DNA from: a virus
Lineage: Duplodnaviria > Caudoviricetes
Virus record (IMG/VR): IMGVR_UViG_3300023178_004792
Coordinates: 1 to 60,037 of that record
Direction: 5' to 3' (one strand)
DNA: 60,037 nucleotides
A program made the position numbers and the translations under genes. The notes under the pieces were generated by a model. The model saw only the letters and a list, made by a program, of their open reading frames with translations, had not been told where the DNA came from and did not search any database. This document shows, piece by piece, positions 41,551 to 57,711 of the stretch (position 1 is the first letter of the stretch; each line of letters begins with the position of its first letter).

Positions 41551-42838
41551 CCTAAAAAACTATCTATCGATTTTTCAAGACCAGGGAGCAAGTTTCTCCA
41601 GGTGATCCCGGCACGATGTTTGTCTTGTAGGTCGTTGTATTTGATGAAACTCTGTAAGGTCTCTTTTTTGAATGGCATTGACTTGTCGTTGCTTTCGTGT
41701 AAAGATTTAATATGCGATTCAATTTGTTTTTTGTTGTCAACTTTATCCACTTTATGTAGTGAATCTTGTAGTTTTTTTGCCACGGACTTCTTGTACTCGT
41801 CAGGCAAAACAGAATAGTCACAGATCCGAGGCCCAGTCACTACACCGGTCCACCATACATCCACCGCAATATCATGTTGCTTTTCGAACTGTTCCACGTA
41901 ATGCACTGTGTCAACCACGCTGTGTATGTTAAGCGACTAAAGGTTGGTCCTATGGTCATCCTGCACCTGTCATTAGTTTTCATAATGTCAGCGTAGAACT
42001 TCAAAGACCTTTCAATAACTGGCCATTTTGAAGGGTAGCGGATGTAGTCATTGACATCTCCTATTCCGTCCACACTACCATAAATGCCCATCATTTTAAC
42101 TTTCTTCAGCCAAGTGATCATTTTTGGATTGGTGTTGGTCAGATTAGTCGTCAAGGTGACTGTCTTTTTTTGTAGAGTGTCTTTTTGAAAACAAAATTCC
42201 AACAATTCATAGAACTCCTTGATTGCAGTTGGCTCGCCGCCAACAACATTGAGGTCACTGACATTATCACTTACGTAGTTGAAGATGTCATTCTTTGTTT
42301 TTGGGTTTTTGAACCAGTCATAAACTATTCCCAATTCAGATGTCCAGTTGTTCACCACACCACCTTGCTTCTTGAGCCATTCAACAAATCCGGGCTCTTT
42401 GTCGCCTATCTTTAATAACTCTTCTCCTATCTTGTGACTGTATTGCTGGCTACACATCTTGCAGGCAAGGTTACAAACATTTCCAAAGTGTAGTTCTAGT
42501 TGTTCTATTTTGTTATTGACTTTGCCATCCACTGTGATTGCATTGTAATGTTCGTAGTCTTTCACGTTTCTCATGCTTTTGATACCTCTGTCCTCGAGGT
42601 CATAGCACCTCTTACAGATATCTAGCCTTTCACCCGCCAGCATTTTCTTTCTGGTTTCTATCATGTAATTGCTGTTCCAACTGTCTGAAATTTTATCTTT
42701 TGACAGGTTGTATTGGTGATACCCGTCGTTCTTTGTGATGTGTTCCGGAGACAGGCAACACACCTTAAAGTGTCCTGTGGTCTGAACGTACAGATGCTTC
42801 CAAGGATAGTTACAAAAAGTTTTTGGTGTTTTAGACAT
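41547..42838 (-). pseudogene. Twitch radical SAM gene split by a 1-nt frameshift near 41938
   Basis: FCNYPW..VCC..CKRC, CNLACKMC. GPTF continues in another frame as SLNIHSVVD, matching the paralogs' TISLLNVLHL / SISCLNVLHL. Confidence 0.75.
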
Positions 42839-46801: not shown

Positions 46802-47326
46802 TTATGCATCACCTCTTTGGTCGAACATTCCGACGAAAGTGTCAGCGTCACCGTTCACGTGACCTTCAGGTAATAACGTTCTCACTTTAACGTGTACGTT
46901 ACCAGCCGAGTCACTGATGTCAAGTGTTGCTAGGATGTCTGTCTCTAGGTCAGCCTCAGCGTCACCCACCACAGTTGCGTCAACGTCCATGTTGATGTCA
47001 CCTGCAGAGTCAGCCGCGTTGAACTGTCCCGGTGTACCTTCGCATACGAACTGGTATGAGTCGATTGAGTCGTTGGCTTCGATCGCCGCAACTTCCGCCG
47101 CATCATTGACAGTGGCCTTTGCCGCTAATCTGTAAGAAGCGCCAAGTAGGGTACCGTTTCTGTTTACAACCTTTGTCACTTTGTCGAAAGCACTGTCAAG
47201 AGCTTCTGGCGTAGTAGCCGAAGCCGTGATGGCGTTGTCAAAGATAACCTCGATGAAAGTCAAACCTTTACCATTGAAAGACTGTCTTCTCGTCAAGTCA
47301 GTTGATCTGTTTTGTGTAATAGGCAT
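46802..47326 (-). CDS. Virion structural paralog 3
   Basis: MPITQN...SFNGKGLTF; GGAGGAG SD. Confidence 0.7.
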   Translation of the reverse strand: MPITQNRSTDLTRRQSFNGKGLTFIEVIFDNAITASATTPEALDSAFDKVTKVVNRNGTLLGASYRLAAKATVNDAAEVAAIEANDSIDSYQFVCEGTPGQFNAADSAGDINMDVDATVVGDAEADLETDILATLDISDSAGNVHVKVRTLLPEGHVNGDADTFVGMFDQRGDA

Positions 47327-47352
47327 TTTTTTTCTCCTCCTATACTAAACTA

Positions 47353-47751
47353 TTAAGCATTTACACCAGTGTCCGAAGCACCTGTTGTGTTCGATGTCAC
47401 TGTTGCACTTGAAATAGTTGCTGTGATTTTTGAGTTTGAGTTAAGCGCCTGGATCGCTGATTGGATAGCCGCCACAGTAGTCGTTGAACTTATAGTGTCA
47501 AGAGCGTCCGCTCTCACCATGTAAGTCACCTCTGTGTTACCGACAGCAAGACCACCCTTACCAATGATGTTCACACCTTGGTTTTGGATTGCCTCTTCAA
47601 CTAACGCAAGGCCGGCCGTGTTGGCAGTTGCTAATGGATCAGTAGTCTCCGCGTTCATGGGATTGATGTAGTCAACTGTTAAGAATGCAACATCTACTCC
47701 CTCAAACTCGTTGTTCAAGTTAATTGCAAAGTTATTTTTAGAAATTGGCAT
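47353..47751 (-). CDS. Virion structural paralog 2
   Basis: MPISKNN...EFEGVDVAF...NIIGKGGL...AIQAL; AAGGAG SD. Confidence 0.7.
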   Translation of the reverse strand: MPISKNNFAINLNNEFEGVDVAFLTVDYINPMNAETTDPLATANTAGLALVEEAIQNQGVNIIGKGGLAVGNTEVTYMVRADALDTISSTTTVAAIQSAIQALNSNSKITATISSATVTSNTTGASDTGVNA

Positions 47752-47773
47752 TGTCTATGTCTCCTTACTAAAA

Positions 47774-48184
47774 TTACTCTAACGTCGCTTTTCTCATCGC
47801 AAGGTTAGTAACGAAAGACGTTTCTGAACCCATGTCGATAGAGTCAACAGTTCCTAAGGCCTGTACTGCTGTGGCCAAAGTTCCTGCTGTTGCGTTTGCA
47901 GAACTTGTTGTTAATGTAAAAGTACCACCTGCACTTGCTGGTGATCCTACGAATTGGTCAGTGCCCTCAATTATGTAGTTCTTTTCTACGTTTGAGTTAA
48001 CCAACGGACCCGCACCTACGATGTTTGCGTAGATTTGGATTGTTTTCTCAACCACATCAATGGTGCTGTCTTTGGCCGTCTTAGCCGCAACAGAACTTGG
48101 GAATGTTTGGTTCAAGAACTCAAGGTCTTTACCTAAAAATTCACCTGATGCTACGTGAGTTGTGTTGTTTTCACTTATTGCCAT
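47774..48184 (-). CDS. Virion structural paralog 1
   Basis: MAISENN...EFLGKDLEF...NIVGAGPL...AVQAL; AGGAGG SD. Confidence 0.7.
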   Translation of the reverse strand: MAISENNTTHVASGEFLGKDLEFLNQTFPSSVAAKTAKDSTIDVVEKTIQIYANIVGAGPLVNSNVEKNYIIEGTDQFVGSPASAGGTFTLTTSSANATAGTLATAVQALGTVDSIDMGSETSFVTNLAMRKATLE

Positions 48185-48283
48185 TTTTAATCCTCCTTTT
48201 TATCTGATTACAATGACTGTGACGTCGCTCAGACATCACGTTAAATGTATTTATTGGCAAATTTGGTAAATTAACCGCTAATA

Positions 48284-48400
48284 TTAGGATTTTTGTTCTT
48301 CTTTACAGCATTTACACATGCAGTCAGGACAATCGAGGCACTCTGCACACGATCTCTCACAGTGGTGTTCACAACCACATTCACATACACATTCAATCAT
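48284..48400 (-). CDS. Cys-rich micro-peptide B (38 aa, 12 Cys)
   Basis: MIECVCECGCEHHCERSCAECLDCPDCMCKCCKEEQKS; TAAATA at 48406-48411. Confidence 0.75.
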   Translation of the reverse strand: MIECVCECGCEHHCERSCAECLDCPDCMCKCCKEEQKS

Positions 48401-48412
48401 GCTGTTATTTAA

Positions 48413-48544
48413 CTACCCCACAGGGTTGAATCTCTGCAAACATTTCAAACAGTCACAGGTCTCACAGTTCTCACAGTTCTTGCATTCTTCATCACAGTGC
48501 CGCTCACAAGAACACCTGTGGCATCGTTCTTCTCTCTTAGGCAT
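48413..48544 (-). CDS. Cys-rich micro-peptide A (43 aa, 10 Cys)
   Basis: MPKREERCHRCSCERHCDEECKNCENCETCDCLKCLQRFNPVG; AAGGAG SD; overlaps the stop of the upstream gene. Confidence 0.75.
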   Translation of the reverse strand: MPKREERCHRCSCERHCDEECKNCENCETCDCLKCLQRFNPVG

Positions 48545-49103
48545 TGATCTCCTTGAATTTTCTTTGTATGTCTGTGTTGGGCAACTTTGATTTGAGATAT
48601 TGATTTATTTTGTCGATCACTTGTTTTTTTGTCCGTTTGTCTAGATTACCATAGTTGGCCACCGATCTGCGCAGGTTACGATAGTTGGCGTCGTTTATGT
48701 TCAATGACCTCTCCAGCATGGAAAGGTTACTATAATGATCTTCGAAACTTCTGAGGTATCTTCTCACGGCCATCACGGGCAATGTTTGCCTTTGCCTCAT
48801 GGCCTGTGCCTGGTTCTTGTTCTTGAGTTTTTTAGTGATTTCAGGGTCTCCCGACACTATTGCCATCATGTTTGCAAGATCATTGTTGATCATCCTCACC
48901 TGGTCAAAGGTGCCCTTTGCCATTGTCTGGTCTGCGTACATTTTGGTAAAAGACTGTGTCTGTTTCAACTGACTCATCAAGGCCAGTGCTAGGAAACTCA
49001 GATAAATTCTCTCTGTGACTTCGGGAAAAGTGAATCTCTGCAAGTCATTATGCCGTCTTATCACTTTACCCTCAGATACATACTTAAGAAATGGTGTTAG
49101 CAT
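48537..49103 (-). CDS. Hypothetical protein (probable head-associated)
   Basis: MLTPFLKYVSEG; TAAATA at 49109-49114. Confidence 0.7.
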   Translation of the reverse strand: MLTPFLKYVSEGKVIRRHNDLQRFTFPEVTERIYLSFLALALMSQLKQTQSFTKMYADQTMAKGTFDQVRMINNDLANMMAIVSGDPEITKKLKNKNQAQAMRQRQTLPVMAVRRYLRSFEDHYSNLSMLERSLNINDANYRNLRRSVANYGNLDKRTKKQVIDKINQYLKSKLPNTDIQRKFKEINA

Positions 49104-49122
49104 ACACATATTTATAGACGAC

Positions 49123-50196
49123 ATGCAACGTAACTTTATATTGACCGACGTGATGAAGACAGGAGATCACCTGTCATACGAAAGATTCATTGACTACAAC
49201 ACAATGGAAGGACAGAAGTTTGACTACACAGGTGAGTATTACACACTGCATGGTTTTGACTTAGACAGTTACGATCGTAGGTTTGCGTTCATAGACTCGC
49301 AGATACACAATGACAGGATGATAGGCAATCAAGCATACAAGGATGACCTTGCCAGGCGCCTAGAGTTGTTGCACCAACAGGGTTTTGTATTCATAAAGGC
49401 CTGCCCATGGGAGTCGCAGGAAAACATAGACACAAATACATTCCTTGCAGGCAAGCCTATGCCCGAAGTTGATATTCCTTATCCCTACATGACATGGACC
49501 GGAGGCGTGTCATGGTTCTGGTATTACATGTATGACAAGCATCATGCCAACTCATTGAAATTCACACACCGGCACAAGACACATGATTTCTTGTATCTCA
49601 ATAAGGGTGCGAGGGCACACAGAGTAAAACTGTATGACAAACTCTTGTCCACTGGCGTACTCGATAACAGCATACACACTTTCATAGAACGTGTGCCACC
49701 AAGACGACTGGATAAAAAATACGAGTTGCCTGGAATAGATCCAGCAGACTATCCGAGGTGGGGCAAAGATCAAGACATCTATGAGCCACCATACAACGAT
49801 ACTGCGTGTTCGCTGGTGTCAGAGACCAACGACTCAAACAACGAAGTCTTTATGACAGAAAAAATATGGAAACCTATCATGGCGCAACATCCTTTCGTGG
49901 TGCATGGGAACCATCTTTACCTACAAAAATTAAAGGAGATCGGATTCAAAACTTTTGGATCTTACTTTGACGAGACTTATGACCTAGAACAAGATCAAGA
50001 CAAGAGAATAGACAAGATAGTAAATCTATGTAAAGATCTACTTTCAATCAATTGGCAGGATCTATATTTGCAGACACAATCACTACGCCAACACAATTAC
50101 AATACATTATTCGATAAAGATAAAATGTCGAAAGAAATTAATAAAACTTTAGATCTATTTCTTGAATTTGCTGACAGCAGTCAAGTTCCTTCTTGA
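49123..50196 (+). CDS. Glycosyltransferase-like protein (GT-B / fucosyltransferase-like C-terminus)
   Basis: FLYLN...HRVKL...SLVSET...FMTEKIWKPI...GFKTF...DETYD. Confidence 0.6.
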   Translation: MQRNFILTDVMKTGDHLSYERFIDYNTMEGQKFDYTGEYYTLHGFDLDSYDRRFAFIDSQIHNDRMIGNQAYKDDLARRLELLHQQGFVFIKACPWESQENIDTNTFLAGKPMPEVDIPYPYMTWTGGVSWFWYYMYDKHHANSLKFTHRHKTHDFLYLNKGARAHRVKLYDKLLSTGVLDNSIHTFIERVPPRRLDKKYELPGIDPADYPRWGKDQDIYEPPYNDTACSLVSETNDSNNEVFMTEKIWKPIMAQHPFVVHGNHLYLQKLKEIGFKTFGSYFDETYDLEQDQDKRIDKIVNLCKDLLSINWQDLYLQTQSLRQHNYNTLFDKDKMSKEINKTLDLFLEFADSSQVPS

Positions 50197-52358: not shown

Positions 52359-53477
52359 TTATCCTCCTTTGTTTTTTAATAGATGTAATAGTTCCTGAAG
52401 ATACACTTCATGATCTAGTTTTTTGAATGATTTTGTAAAATCCAACTCTTTGTAGAATCTATCCCTTGCACCTTTATCAAAGGTAGAGTCGTCTAATTTC
52501 TTACACACGGTGTCCTTGCCAATTTTGAGATTACTCAACTTTTCTTTTATGAATTCCTTCTGTCCTGCATTAAAAATCGAGAAAGAGTAATGCTGTGGGG
52601 TGTCCACAAAATTCAGCATCCATACCAACTTGTTCTGCATCAACCATTCTGTGAGCTTGGGTAGGTGCAGTACGTTTAGGCAACTGATAGAGGGTGCAAT
52701 CATTAAAGTGAAGCATGATTCTTTCTGGAGTGCCTTCATTTCTTTCAAATTTTCTTCGACGTCGTGCCACCTGCCGTTTGACCTAATATATTCAAAAAGG
52801 TCACCAGTTGCGTCAATGCTTAGACACAAATCTATCTTGTTGAAATGCGTGGAGATTTCTTTGAGCTTGTCCGGCACAGGCACGGTCCCGTTGGTGACGT
52901 AGGCCAGGCTTATTTTTTTAGACATGCCTTTCTCTACTAGATGTTCGAGTACATTCAAGTGGTCAAAGTTTTTGAAGGGCTCGCCTCCCAGCACCTCTAT
53001 TGTTTCTAGGTGCGTCAGGTCGTTAGCCAGTATCGATTCTACCGGAGTCCTTTTGTATGGTTTTTTGTCTAGCATCTTGTCACCAAGTTTGGCTTGAAAC
53101 TCGATCCACAAGCCAGAACTGATTTCTGGCTGACAGGTTCTGCAGGCAAGGTTGCATACGTTGCCGGAATCTATCACGAGGTGCTTCAATTGTTTACTTT
53201 GGTTCTCCTCCTCTGTCTCACTTTCTGTTTTGTGTTTTGAAAATTGCTGTCTTTTAGACACAACACCGTTTTTTTCACAGGTCCAACAGAAATCGCAGAG
53301 TGGATTTTTGATACCATTCGCGAGATCTTCCCTGAGAGTCTTTAACTCCTTGTCGTTGTTCAGTGCATGATGGCTGTCAAATTTGTTTTGAGATTTTATG
53401 TGACAACACACGTGCCCTTGTCGGTAGTCAAACCCTGCTGTAGCCAGCGAACAATATGTGTCTCTATTCATTCCCAT
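52359..53477 (-). CDS. N-terminal twitch-domain radical SAM protein
   Basis: YCSLA..VCC..CDFC; CNLACRTC; GGEPF; VTNGT; SIDA. Confidence 0.88.
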   Translation of the reverse strand: MGMNRDTYCSLATAGFDYRQGHVCCHIKSQNKFDSHHALNNDKELKTLREDLANGIKNPLCDFCWTCEKNGVVSKRQQFSKHKTESETEEENQSKQLKHLVIDSGNVCNLACRTCQPEISSGLWIEFQAKLGDKMLDKKPYKRTPVESILANDLTHLETIEVLGGEPFKNFDHLNVLEHLVEKGMSKKISLAYVTNGTVPVPDKLKEISTHFNKIDLCLSIDATGDLFEYIRSNGRWHDVEENLKEMKALQKESCFTLMIAPSISCLNVLHLPKLTEWLMQNKLVWMLNFVDTPQHYSFSIFNAGQKEFIKEKLSNLKIGKDTVCKKLDDSTFDKGARDRFYKELDFTKSFKKLDHEVYLQELLHLLKNKGG

Positions 53478-53509
53478 GGAATTATTTAACATGGCGAAAA
53501 ATATTAAAT

Positions 53510-53709: not shown

Positions 53710-54150
53710 ATGATCAAGTTCGCCCTCAAGTGTGAATGTTCCGCCAAGTTCGAAGGCTGGTTCCCAAGCAACGAAGACTACGAAAACCAGTTGGCAAAGG
53801 GACAGTTGTTATGTCCCATGTGCGACAGCACCCGAGTGCGTAAAGACATAATGGCACCCGCGGTTGGTAAAAAGTCCACGGCGAGAAAACGAGGCAAGGC
53901 CAAAATGGAAGAGCTCACAGGAGATCAGATGGTTATGGGAGGACAGGCCCGGACACTGCTGAAGCAGATACAGAATCATGTGGAGAAAAATTTCGAGAAC
54001 GTTGGTAAAAAGTTTGCTCGGGAGGCCAGAAAGGCACACAATGGTGAAAGGAATCTGGAGTTCTATGGCAAACCCACAAAGAAGGAAGTCACTGAATTAA
54101 CAAATGAAGGCATAGACCTGTTCGCGGTGCCCAAGGTCAAAGACAATTAG
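53710..54150 (+). CDS. DUF1178 family protein
   Basis: MIKFALKC..FEGWF..CPMC..IMAP..FENVGKKFAREARKAH. Confidence 0.88.
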   Translation: MIKFALKCECSAKFEGWFPSNEDYENQLAKGQLLCPMCDSTRVRKDIMAPAVGKKSTARKRGKAKMEELTGDQMVMGGQARTLLKQIQNHVEKNFENVGKKFAREARKAHNGERNLEFYGKPTKKEVTELTNEGIDLFAVPKVKDN

Positions 54151-56701: not shown

Positions 56702-57711
56702 TATGCCCTTTCTAGGTCACAGGTCACGCAGTGGGGTCCACCGCCCAGTGTCCTTGATTGTGTGAGCGGAACTTCTATACAGTTGAATCCCTCCGCCCTC
56801 AGTTGTTTGACCAAATCTTTCTGCACGGGATCTATCATCACGGTCTCCTCGTCTATGCTGAGTATGTTCATGCCGATCCATTTTGATGCGTAAGGAAATT
56901 GTGAAAATGAACCGTCGGCCATGTCATGCAACCATATCTTCCTGTATGATTTAAGGAAGTCTGGCAGTTGGTTTGTGTTTTGTACCCTACTTGCATTTAT
57001 CATGACTAAATCTTTTTTCAGTGACGTCAGCGTTGAATCGATGTGTGAATGTGTGTAAACCTTGTCCCACACTATTACTTCGAACTCGTTGCCAACTACT
57101 TTTTGTAACCACTTGGCTCCTATGTAATTTGACGTGCTGGTCTTCATGTACAGCAGTTTGTCATTGAATTTCAAAACATTGGCGGCGTCAAAGATAGGAT
57201 ATCTCTCTGTTAGTTTTATCTTGTTCAGGCCCATCACGCACTCCGCCGGTTCCATCCTTGCTCGTGGTGCCGCGATCCATCTGCATCCGTCCCGCATGGC
57301 CTCCTGCTTTATCACATCATAGGCATCAAACTCCCTATACCTACTCACGAAAGGTGTTGGACATTCTATGGCCATGTTGCCCACAGTGAGTATGAGATCC
57401 CTCGGAGAGTAGGAGTGCATACCTGAGGTCATATGTTCGTAGTGAGTCACTGTCCTTTTGTAGTCGAGGATTTCTGGACGGAAAACTTTTACGTCATTGT
57501 CTTCCAGGAGATCCTTCATTCGCAGTAGGTCGTCGTTGGCCTCCTTAATGACCGATCCCGATATCGGTCCCTTGGAAATTTTGCCTGGGTGCGTGTTCAA
57601 GTCTGCCAGGCGGTCAAAGAAGATGTCTCCTGTGGGCCAGTTGGCTCCATGTGGCCTGCCCAGTATCACAGACTTCAATCTGTCGTATTCGTTGCGTGTG
57701 GAAATTTTCAT
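56701..57711 (-). CDS. Amidinotransferase (AGAT/StrB1-like)
   Basis: NEYDRLKSVILG, SPRD, FDAAN, HIDST, WIGMN, LGGGPHC. Confidence 0.9.
   Translation of the reverse strand: MKISTRNEYDRLKSVILGRPHGANWPTGDIFFDRLADLNTHPGKISKGPISGSVIKEANDDLLRMKDLLEDNDVKVFRPEILDYKRTVTHYEHMTSGMHSYSPRDLILTVGNMAIECPTPFVSRYREFDAYDVIKQEAMRDGCRWIAAPRARMEPAECVMGLNKIKLTERYPIFDAANVLKFNDKLLYMKTSTSNYIGAKWLQKVVGNEFEVIVWDKVYTHSHIDSTLTSLKKDLVMINASRVQNTNQLPDFLKSYRKIWLHDMADGSFSQFPYASKWIGMNILSIDEETVMIDPVQKDLVKQLRAEGFNCIEVPLTQSRTLGGGPHCVTCDLERA

Follow-up and report, generated by a model that had tools for sequence, protein, structure and literature searches.

Tandem genes for two cysteine-rich mini-proteins in a tailed phage: members of a conserved family seen so far only in viruses and likely to bind metal

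Two very small open reading frames (ORFs), here called A and B, lie in tandem on the minus strand of the Caudoviricetes virus record IMGVR_UViG_3300023178_004792 of IMG/VR. The whole stretch of 60,037 nucleotides that was analysed is called the window below, and its record is rated 12% complete. Both ORFs are crowded with Cys codons. Are they genes, and what could such mini-proteins do for a phage? An initial annotation, made from the sequence alone, had proposed that two tandem Cys-rich ORFs with the same Cys/His spacing encode either phage metallothioneins or precursor peptides of radical-SAM enzymes. Both ORFs were found where they had been placed (Table 1), and the proposed register of 25 residues is correct. 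In summary, the comparative analysis indicates that A and B are real genes, and it is likely that their products bind metal.

Peptides A and B align without a gap in the register CxCExHCxxxCxxCxxCxxCxCxxC (BLASTP E 2e-4 with composition adjustment). Their resemblance is far beyond chance, and B reads as a paralogue of A on a common scaffold. Patterns back-translated from the A/B alignment retrieved relatives on 15 viral contigs, numbered L001 to L015. In these syntenic loci, A and B are separate genes in nine cases and are fused in one 79-aa ORF in L011, while four loci have A only (L003, L005-L007) and L012 has a B-like gene only. Counted by orthologue, A occurs in 14 of the 15 loci (13 times as a separate ORF and once in the N-terminal half of the L011 fusion, but not in L012) and B in 11 of them, one of these copies being fused to A. 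Across the 21 aligned A and B sequences from the window and the 15 contigs, ten Cys residues and one His residue are invariant at a mean column identity of 42%, and each of the 11 invariant columns employs both synonymous codons. The invariant His corresponds to His16 of A. The dN/dS ratio, where computable, is 0.05-0.56 and does not exceed 0.25 in 15 of 17 pairs, with synonymous sites largely saturated.

Could A and B be chance ORFs, or could the real gene be a 90-aa ORF on the plus strand (48318-48590)? Long stop-free antisense runs are present in several loci, and for this reason all six frames were compared by pN/pS. The sense frame had the lowest value in all nine pairs (0.08-0.17 for A and 0.08-0.22 for B), with one near tie with an antisense frame (0.13 vs 0.14). 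One antisense frame was second lowest, at 0.13-0.66. However, the antisense run is interrupted in L003, L008, and L013. The minus-strand frames agree with the start signals, with the strand of the operon, and with the invariant Cys/His columns and their use of both synonymous codons. I regard the view that A and B are not genes as very improbable. Selection on the Cys/His scaffold, which the initial annotation had read from the pair, is borne out by the invariant columns and by the ranking of the frames. In the RNA libraries (metatranscriptomes), a contig of run X12 covers 48252-48563, spanning A and B, and a contig of run X17 covers 48438-48596, the A region. Since DNA can be present in RNA libraries, these contigs are weak support for transcription, and they cannot rank genes by expression.

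The AAGGAG Shine-Dalgarno (SD) sequence that had been ascribed to A and the separate TAAATA ascribed to B were both read at the distances given in Table 1. The ATG of A and the stop codon of the upstream 195-aa ORF overlap by 8 nt, and 12 nt separate the A stop codon from the B ATG. The TAAATA-N5-ATG arrangement is retained before the B genes of nine related loci (L001, L002, L008, L009, L010, L012, L013, L014, and L015). Is it a more general signal in this phage? It opens eight window ORFs of at least 30 aa, which start at 53710 and 58832 on the plus strand and at 57711, 53477, 49103, 48400, 46730, and 6553 on the minus strand. A variant with an 8-nt spacer opens four more on the minus strand (58673, 51671, 44478, and 34155). 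Both genes of the divergent pair 53477/53710 start with TAAATA-N5-ATG, and the ATG at 49103, which lies inside the upstream 195-aa ORF, is preceded by the TATAAATA-N5-ATG arrangement. Judged by this recurrence, which the initial annotation had not noticed, TAAATA-N5-ATG is a gene-start signal of the phage. T4-type late promoters have TATAAATA at -10. With the spacing of such a promoter, the transcript would start on or beside the A of the ATG, and the mRNA would be leaderless. This suggests that the TAAATA-N5-ATG genes may give leaderless late mRNAs.

How far does the family extend? A profile scan of 1.84 billion protein cluster representatives returned 31 unnamed proteins at E <= 0.001, each 38-83 aa in length except P0014 (255 aa). 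A second pattern scan, built from five hits of the profile scan, added 38 loci (L016-L053) to the 15 of the first scan, which gives 53 related viral loci in total. The initial annotation would have been contradicted by a lack of homologues keeping the Cys pattern, and these loci keep it. Loci L016-L053 carry a third subfamily, in which a conserved N-terminal stretch of 17-20 residues, of the type YMDDYxxYKRY, stands ahead of the same scaffold. Among all members there are 72 distinct cores, which consist of 36.5% Cys, 18% Asp and Glu, and 1.9% aromatic residues (Phe, Trp, and Tyr) and whose spacing varies at only three points. Of ten hit clusters looked up, none has a functional name and two are labelled just 'hypothetical protein'. 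Another protein, P0035 (633 aa, an NCBI record), shares a 90% cluster with a 46-aa B-type peptide, and may be either a true fusion or an artefact of gene calling.

Known families did not account for these peptides. No Pfam family was matched at E <= 1, including Fer4, other Fe-S domains, and zf-CCHC, and no PHROGs family was matched. In NCBIfam, A and B matched no family at E <= 10, and the nine peptides tested gave just two chance-level rows. A profile search of the PDB sequences gave only a weak match to the zinc-knuckle protein AIR2 (E 0.6). A word-indexed protein search gave no candidates, while a protein atlas gave unnamed clusters only, all scoring below 0.9, which serve as leads only. 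A tblastn search of 50,697 phage records, a type of search that had been suggested for marine viromes, was empty for A, B, and a peptide of the third subfamily; since the low-complexity filter may mask such queries, this does not prove that cultured phages lack the family. It was the pattern scans that supplied the 53 loci. The genomes of 185,579 species were scanned with two exact patterns, and no true cellular copy was found. The single match, in an actinomycete (L136), arose by chance and out of frame, within long ORFs of high GC content. Literature searches gave no description of a phage Cys-rich mini-protein of this kind. Judged from these searches, the family, whose typical members have 38-60 residues, is undescribed and has so far been found only in viruses. 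It is a conserved gene family that gene callers and family libraries miss; none of the 72 distinct cores is named in any source.

What could the mini-proteins do? Metallothioneins are operationally defined as proteins of less than 10 kDa that are rich in Cys in CxC, CxxC, or CC arrangements, have few aromatic residues, and form metal-thiolate clusters. Their four-metal clusters use 11 ligands, as in the vertebrate alpha domain and in cyanobacterial SmtA/BmtA with Cys9His2. Peptides A and B have 43 and 38 residues, the other family members remain within 38-83 aa except for the 255-aa fusion, and the Cys and aromatic contents of the 72 cores agree with the definition. According to a review (PMC12917443), temperate phages can carry metallothionein genes. 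The 11 fixed ligands in about 28 residues, the acidic and non-aromatic make-up, and the ability of the pair to fuse into one chain led me to favour, tentatively, the reading that A and B may be metallothionein-like metal-thiolate mini-proteins tied to the Fe-S and redox needs of radical-SAM-rich phages. The two peptides would be translated from one late-type transcription unit, with A coupled to the upstream gene and B starting shortly past the A stop codon behind its TAAATA box. The ten Cys residues and one His residue would fold around a polynuclear metal-thiolate cluster in the fashion of a metallothionein domain. The proteins could then act as a buffer for thiophilic metal ions (Zn, Cu, or Fe) or as a means of their delivery, and this might protect or feed the Fe-S economy of a very large phage with many Fe-S enzymes. 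Metal binding, the identity of the metal, the stoichiometry, and the physiological role are all what I infer from sequence and gene context. The initial annotation had also preferred metal binding to a leader-dependent precursor because of the short leaders. This preference is supported by the near-absent leaders (7 residues ahead of the first Cys in A and 3 in B) and by the composition of the cores.

The strongest functional lead, which the initial annotation had missed, is the direct adjacency of the peptide gene to phage IscU/IscA genes in six of the 53 loci. In these loci (L035, L036, L037, L039, L042, and L046), at least four different arrangements bring the peptide gene directly beside NifU_N/IscU genes, Fe-S_biosyn/IscA genes, or both. 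The gene order is PEP-IscU-IscA-IscA in both L042 and L046, and a gene for an Fe/Mn superoxide dismutase comes next after the peptide in L035. The Fe-S and redox genes of the window itself and the isocitrate lyase gene beside the peptide in L033, L038, and L052 count for the same reading. Ten long peptide-bearing contigs (920,593 bases, all fragments) contain two IscU and six IscA matches. From their frequency of less than 1% of genes, and assuming about one gene per kb, flanking IscU/IscA genes would be expected at about 2% of loci, compared with the six of 53 observed. This enrichment is roughly estimated rather than formally tested, and it could be overstated if accessory genes cluster in islands.

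Several observations weigh against the metallothionein-like reading. The peptides show no similarity to any metallothionein family or solved structure in Pfam, NCBIfam, or PDB. An AlphaFold2 model of A built with 21 sequences has a pLDDT (predicted local distance difference test) score of 63, with no confident fold. The pair in the window is not beside Fe-S genes and is flanked by genes of unknown function and probable virion genes. In 16 of the 38 loci of the second scan, the peptide gene belongs to a neck/tail module, where it has a virion structural gene on one side and a T4 gp15-like gene on the other. Five of the ten long peptide-bearing contigs, all of them fragments, have neither IscU nor IscA. 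At none of the 80 viral IscU loci listed is a peptide found within 4 kb, and thus phage IscU does not need the peptide. A complex prediction of A and B with four zinc ions scored 0.00, which weighs neither for nor against binding.

The adjacency to IscU/IscA may be read in another way. The peptide might handle Fe-S clusters or iron, as a donor, a carrier, or a small electron carrier that works with phage IscU/IscA for the viral radical-SAM enzymes. I consider this unlikely. An equally doubtful and more specific form of it is a phage-invented minimal iron/Fe-S chaperone, a Cys10His protein of 40-55 residues, which would act with viral IscU and A-type carriers when giant marine phages load their many Fe-S enzymes, among them those of the radical-SAM type. 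In this role it would replace the ferredoxin, frataxin, or IscX-type helpers that cellular ISC operons encode. An Fe-S role is favoured by more than the six adjacent loci: the peptide gene in L020 is directly followed by three radical-SAM genes, six of the ten long contigs have 1-11 radical-SAM matches, the scaffold contains a CxxCxxCxxC run, and the radical-SAM gene starting at 53477 has the TAAATA-N5-ATG start in common with B. The classic Fer4 ferredoxin motif is CxxCxxCxxxCP. This motif is absent, however; the scaffold reads CxxCxxCxxCxC, and the Pfam search gave no Fer4 or other Fe-S domain match. The window already has a Fer4 ferredoxin, and 28 residues without a hydrophobic core seem too small for shielding cubane clusters. 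The 80 IscU loci that lack the peptide, and the four long contigs that have no radical-SAM gene, also argue against an Fe-S role.

Is the scaffold a structural zinc-knot? In such a case, a compact multi-zinc domain would bind a protein or nucleic-acid partner, for instance a factor of virion assembly, a subunit of an enzyme, or a late regulator, and would not buffer metal. The CCHC zinc-knuckle has the spacing C-x2-C-x4-H-x4-C. The residues C8-x2-C11-x4-H16-x4-C21 of A have exactly this spacing, to which the weak AIR2 match can be added, and both B and the third subfamily contain CP[Dx]C knuckles. However, B has C-x1-C where the knuckle requires C-x2-C, the last Cys of the knuckle spacing is preceded by x5 instead of x4 in L013 and L015, and no zf-CCHC match was found in Pfam. 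Eleven ligands in 28 residues are denser than in known zinc fingers. The strongly acidic sequence of B argues against nucleic-acid binding.

A partner might be sought among the neighbouring genes. P0014 is a natural fusion of an A-type peptide to an FkbM-family methyltransferase, and its cluster has three members of that length. The same type of gene is found separately just downstream of the peptides in L004 (2108-2755) and L010 (5342-6064), and the window has none at the corresponding place. The YMDDYxxYKRY stretch of the third subfamily could be a docking helix, and the position in the neck/tail module in 16 loci would suit a virion partner. The closest cultured matches of the gp15-like gene are in PA5oct-type jumbo phages, at about 36% identity. 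In PA5oct, the virion and gp15-like genes abut with no peptide annotated between them, and in Sinorhizobium phage Phosso the gp15-like gene comes after an endolysin gene, where the annotation likewise shows no peptide; both statements refer to annotation only, with no motif scan. Elsewhere the peptide lies between two unknown genes (seven loci), follows a GH19 endolysin gene (five loci), or adjoins an isocitrate lyase gene (L033; L038, 3590-4816; L052, 8215-9498). Thus, the neighbours differ between lineages and no constant partner is evident, which speaks against a zinc-knot. I hold this view to be about as unlikely as an Fe-S role. Nevertheless, the Fe-S-holding variant and the zinc-knot or partner-binding variant are serious rivals to the metallothionein-like reading.

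The initial annotation had also considered A and B as substrates of the twitch/SPASM radical-SAM enzymes of the phage, which would cross-link their Cys residues as in ranthipeptides or sactipeptides. It is true that Asp, Glu, Asn, or Thr stands beside Cys in the cores and that the window has five radical-SAM ORFs. In L020, at least one of the three radical-SAM genes that directly follow the peptide has a SPASM domain, and the conserved N-terminus of the third subfamily could act as a leader. However, A and B have nearly no leader, and no NCBIfam precursor model matched. Neither the window nor any of the 15 syntenic loci has a radical-SAM gene adjacent to the pair, and L020 is the only case among the 53 loci. 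The expected co-occurrence is incomplete: many carriers are unusually rich in radical-SAM genes, but four of the ten long peptide-bearing contigs, all fragments, have no radical-SAM match. Furthermore, the invariance of all ten Cys residues and the His residue, together with purifying selection along the entire peptide, is what a folded protein would show. The precursor reading is weak because of the leaderless A and B, the missing maturase gene beside 52 of the 53 loci, and the lack of a precursor-model match; it retains some slight weight through L020 and through the leader-like N-terminus of the third subfamily. I consider it improbable.

The layout of the locus is summarised in Table 1. 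The syntenic block of L001-L015 consists of a DUF6267 gene, a 393-aa gene on the opposite strand, the 195-aa gene, A, B, and one to three paralogous genes, and is followed by genes with weak virion-structural PHROG matches. The downstream paralogues are 110-175 aa in length in these loci, and a fourth type is added in L005, L007, L010, and L015. RNA-library contigs cover the downstream paralogues of the window at 46802-48205 (X12) and 47046-48210 (X16). An AlphaFold2 model of the 136-aa paralogue has a pLDDT of 61, and a Foldseek search of PDB with this model yielded generic alpha/beta hits but none at E <= 0.001. Ahead of the first downstream paralogue, the leader (48185-48254, minus strand) combines ATAAATA with an imperfect hairpin of 8 bp and with AAAGGAGG. 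Its conservation at the DNA level is shown by L007 and L010, in which spurious small ORFs repeat the same wording. An RNA end in this leader is weakly hinted at by the RNA-library contigs of X12, X16, and X18, which stop at 48205-48210.

Table 1. Features of the peptide locus in the window
Feature	Position	Strand	Description
Peptide A gene	48413-48544	minus	43 aa, 10 Cys and 2 His, MPKREERCHRCSCERHCDEECKNCENCETCDCLKCLQRFNPVG; range includes the stop codon TAG (48413-48415)
Peptide B gene	48284-48400	minus	38 aa, 12 Cys and 2 His, MIECVCECGCEHHCERSCAECLDCPDCMCKCCKEEQKS
AAGGAG Shine-Dalgarno sequence	48549-48554	minus	4 nt ahead of the A ATG, inside the 3' end of the upstream 195-aa ORF; same AAGGAG in L001-L004
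TAAATA box	48406-48411	minus	exactly 5 nt ahead of the B ATG, within the 12-nt A-B spacer
Upstream 195-aa ORF	48537-49124	minus	conserved upstream of the peptide in L001-L011; no significant Pfam/PHROG family
Three downstream paralogous genes (136, 132, and 174 aa)	46802-48184	minus	strong SD before each; no Pfam/PHROG family

What kind of phage carries the pair? Five ORFs of the window have a Radical_SAM match in Pfam, and those nearest to the pair lie at 41840-42838 (about 5.4 kb away) and 52359-53492 (about 3.8 kb away). The Fe-S and redox genes matched in Pfam encode SufE, a DUF59-type Fe-S assembly protein, the Fer4 ferredoxin, rubrerythrin, glutaredoxin, and a glutathione-peroxidase-like protein, while neither IscU nor IscA was matched in the window. 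Thus, of the radical-SAM-rich setting with Fe-S and B12 supply genes that had been described, the radical-SAM and Fe-S parts stand, but the B12-binding match falls below the Pfam cut-off. Other Pfam matches are DUF1178, a class I ribonucleotide reductase, and a TonB-dependent receptor plug domain. The numbers of Radical_SAM matches in the ten long peptide-bearing contigs are 5, 0, 5, 6, 11, 0, 1, 3, 0, and 0. The records behind L006, L045, L046, L052, L033, and the window are 12-59% complete at 60-208 kb and have 3-11 Radical_SAM matches each; many of the radical-SAM genes in these records have a SPASM-type domain at the N-terminus. Peptide-bearing phage fragments as a whole are 11-59% complete by CheckV at 39-208 kb. 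Since completeness is so low at these lengths, the full genomes are probably several hundred kb in size.

If A and B bind metal, they would represent a metallothionein-like family so far seen only in viruses. In that case, a metal-handling step would be added to the known set of viral Fe-S accessory genes, and a small, easily expressed protein would be at hand for studying how infecting phages deal with zinc, copper, or iron.

How do the peptides compare with known systems? Like the precursors of the SCIFF, ranthipeptide, and sactipeptide types, they are short and Cys-rich and occur in genomes with SPASM/twitch radical-SAM genes. In contrast to such precursors, A and B are leaderless, 52 of the 53 loci have no adjacent radical-SAM gene, and every Cys of the scaffold is invariant. 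Unlike metallothioneins, the peptides have no sequence relation to the Pfam, NCBIfam, or PDB families, are found on viral contigs only, and are rich in Glu and Asp. Like metallothioneins, they are small, consist of about one-third Cys in CxC and CxxC arrangements, have almost no aromatic residues, and offer 11 potential ligands including a His. Moreover, the A-B tandem, fused once in L011, resembles a two-domain protein. As for the phages themselves, Nishimura et al. (2017; PMC5332604) describe, in passages on T4-like marine viral genomes, genes for an A-type carrier, IscU, glutaredoxin, and a DUF59/PaaD-type protein, with as many as 12 radical-SAM genes per genome. These passages mention no Cys-rich mini-protein, while the supplementary tables of the paper might list such ORFs. 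As far as these passages go, the phage of the window is of the same kind, and several of their Fe-S accessory genes are present in the window.
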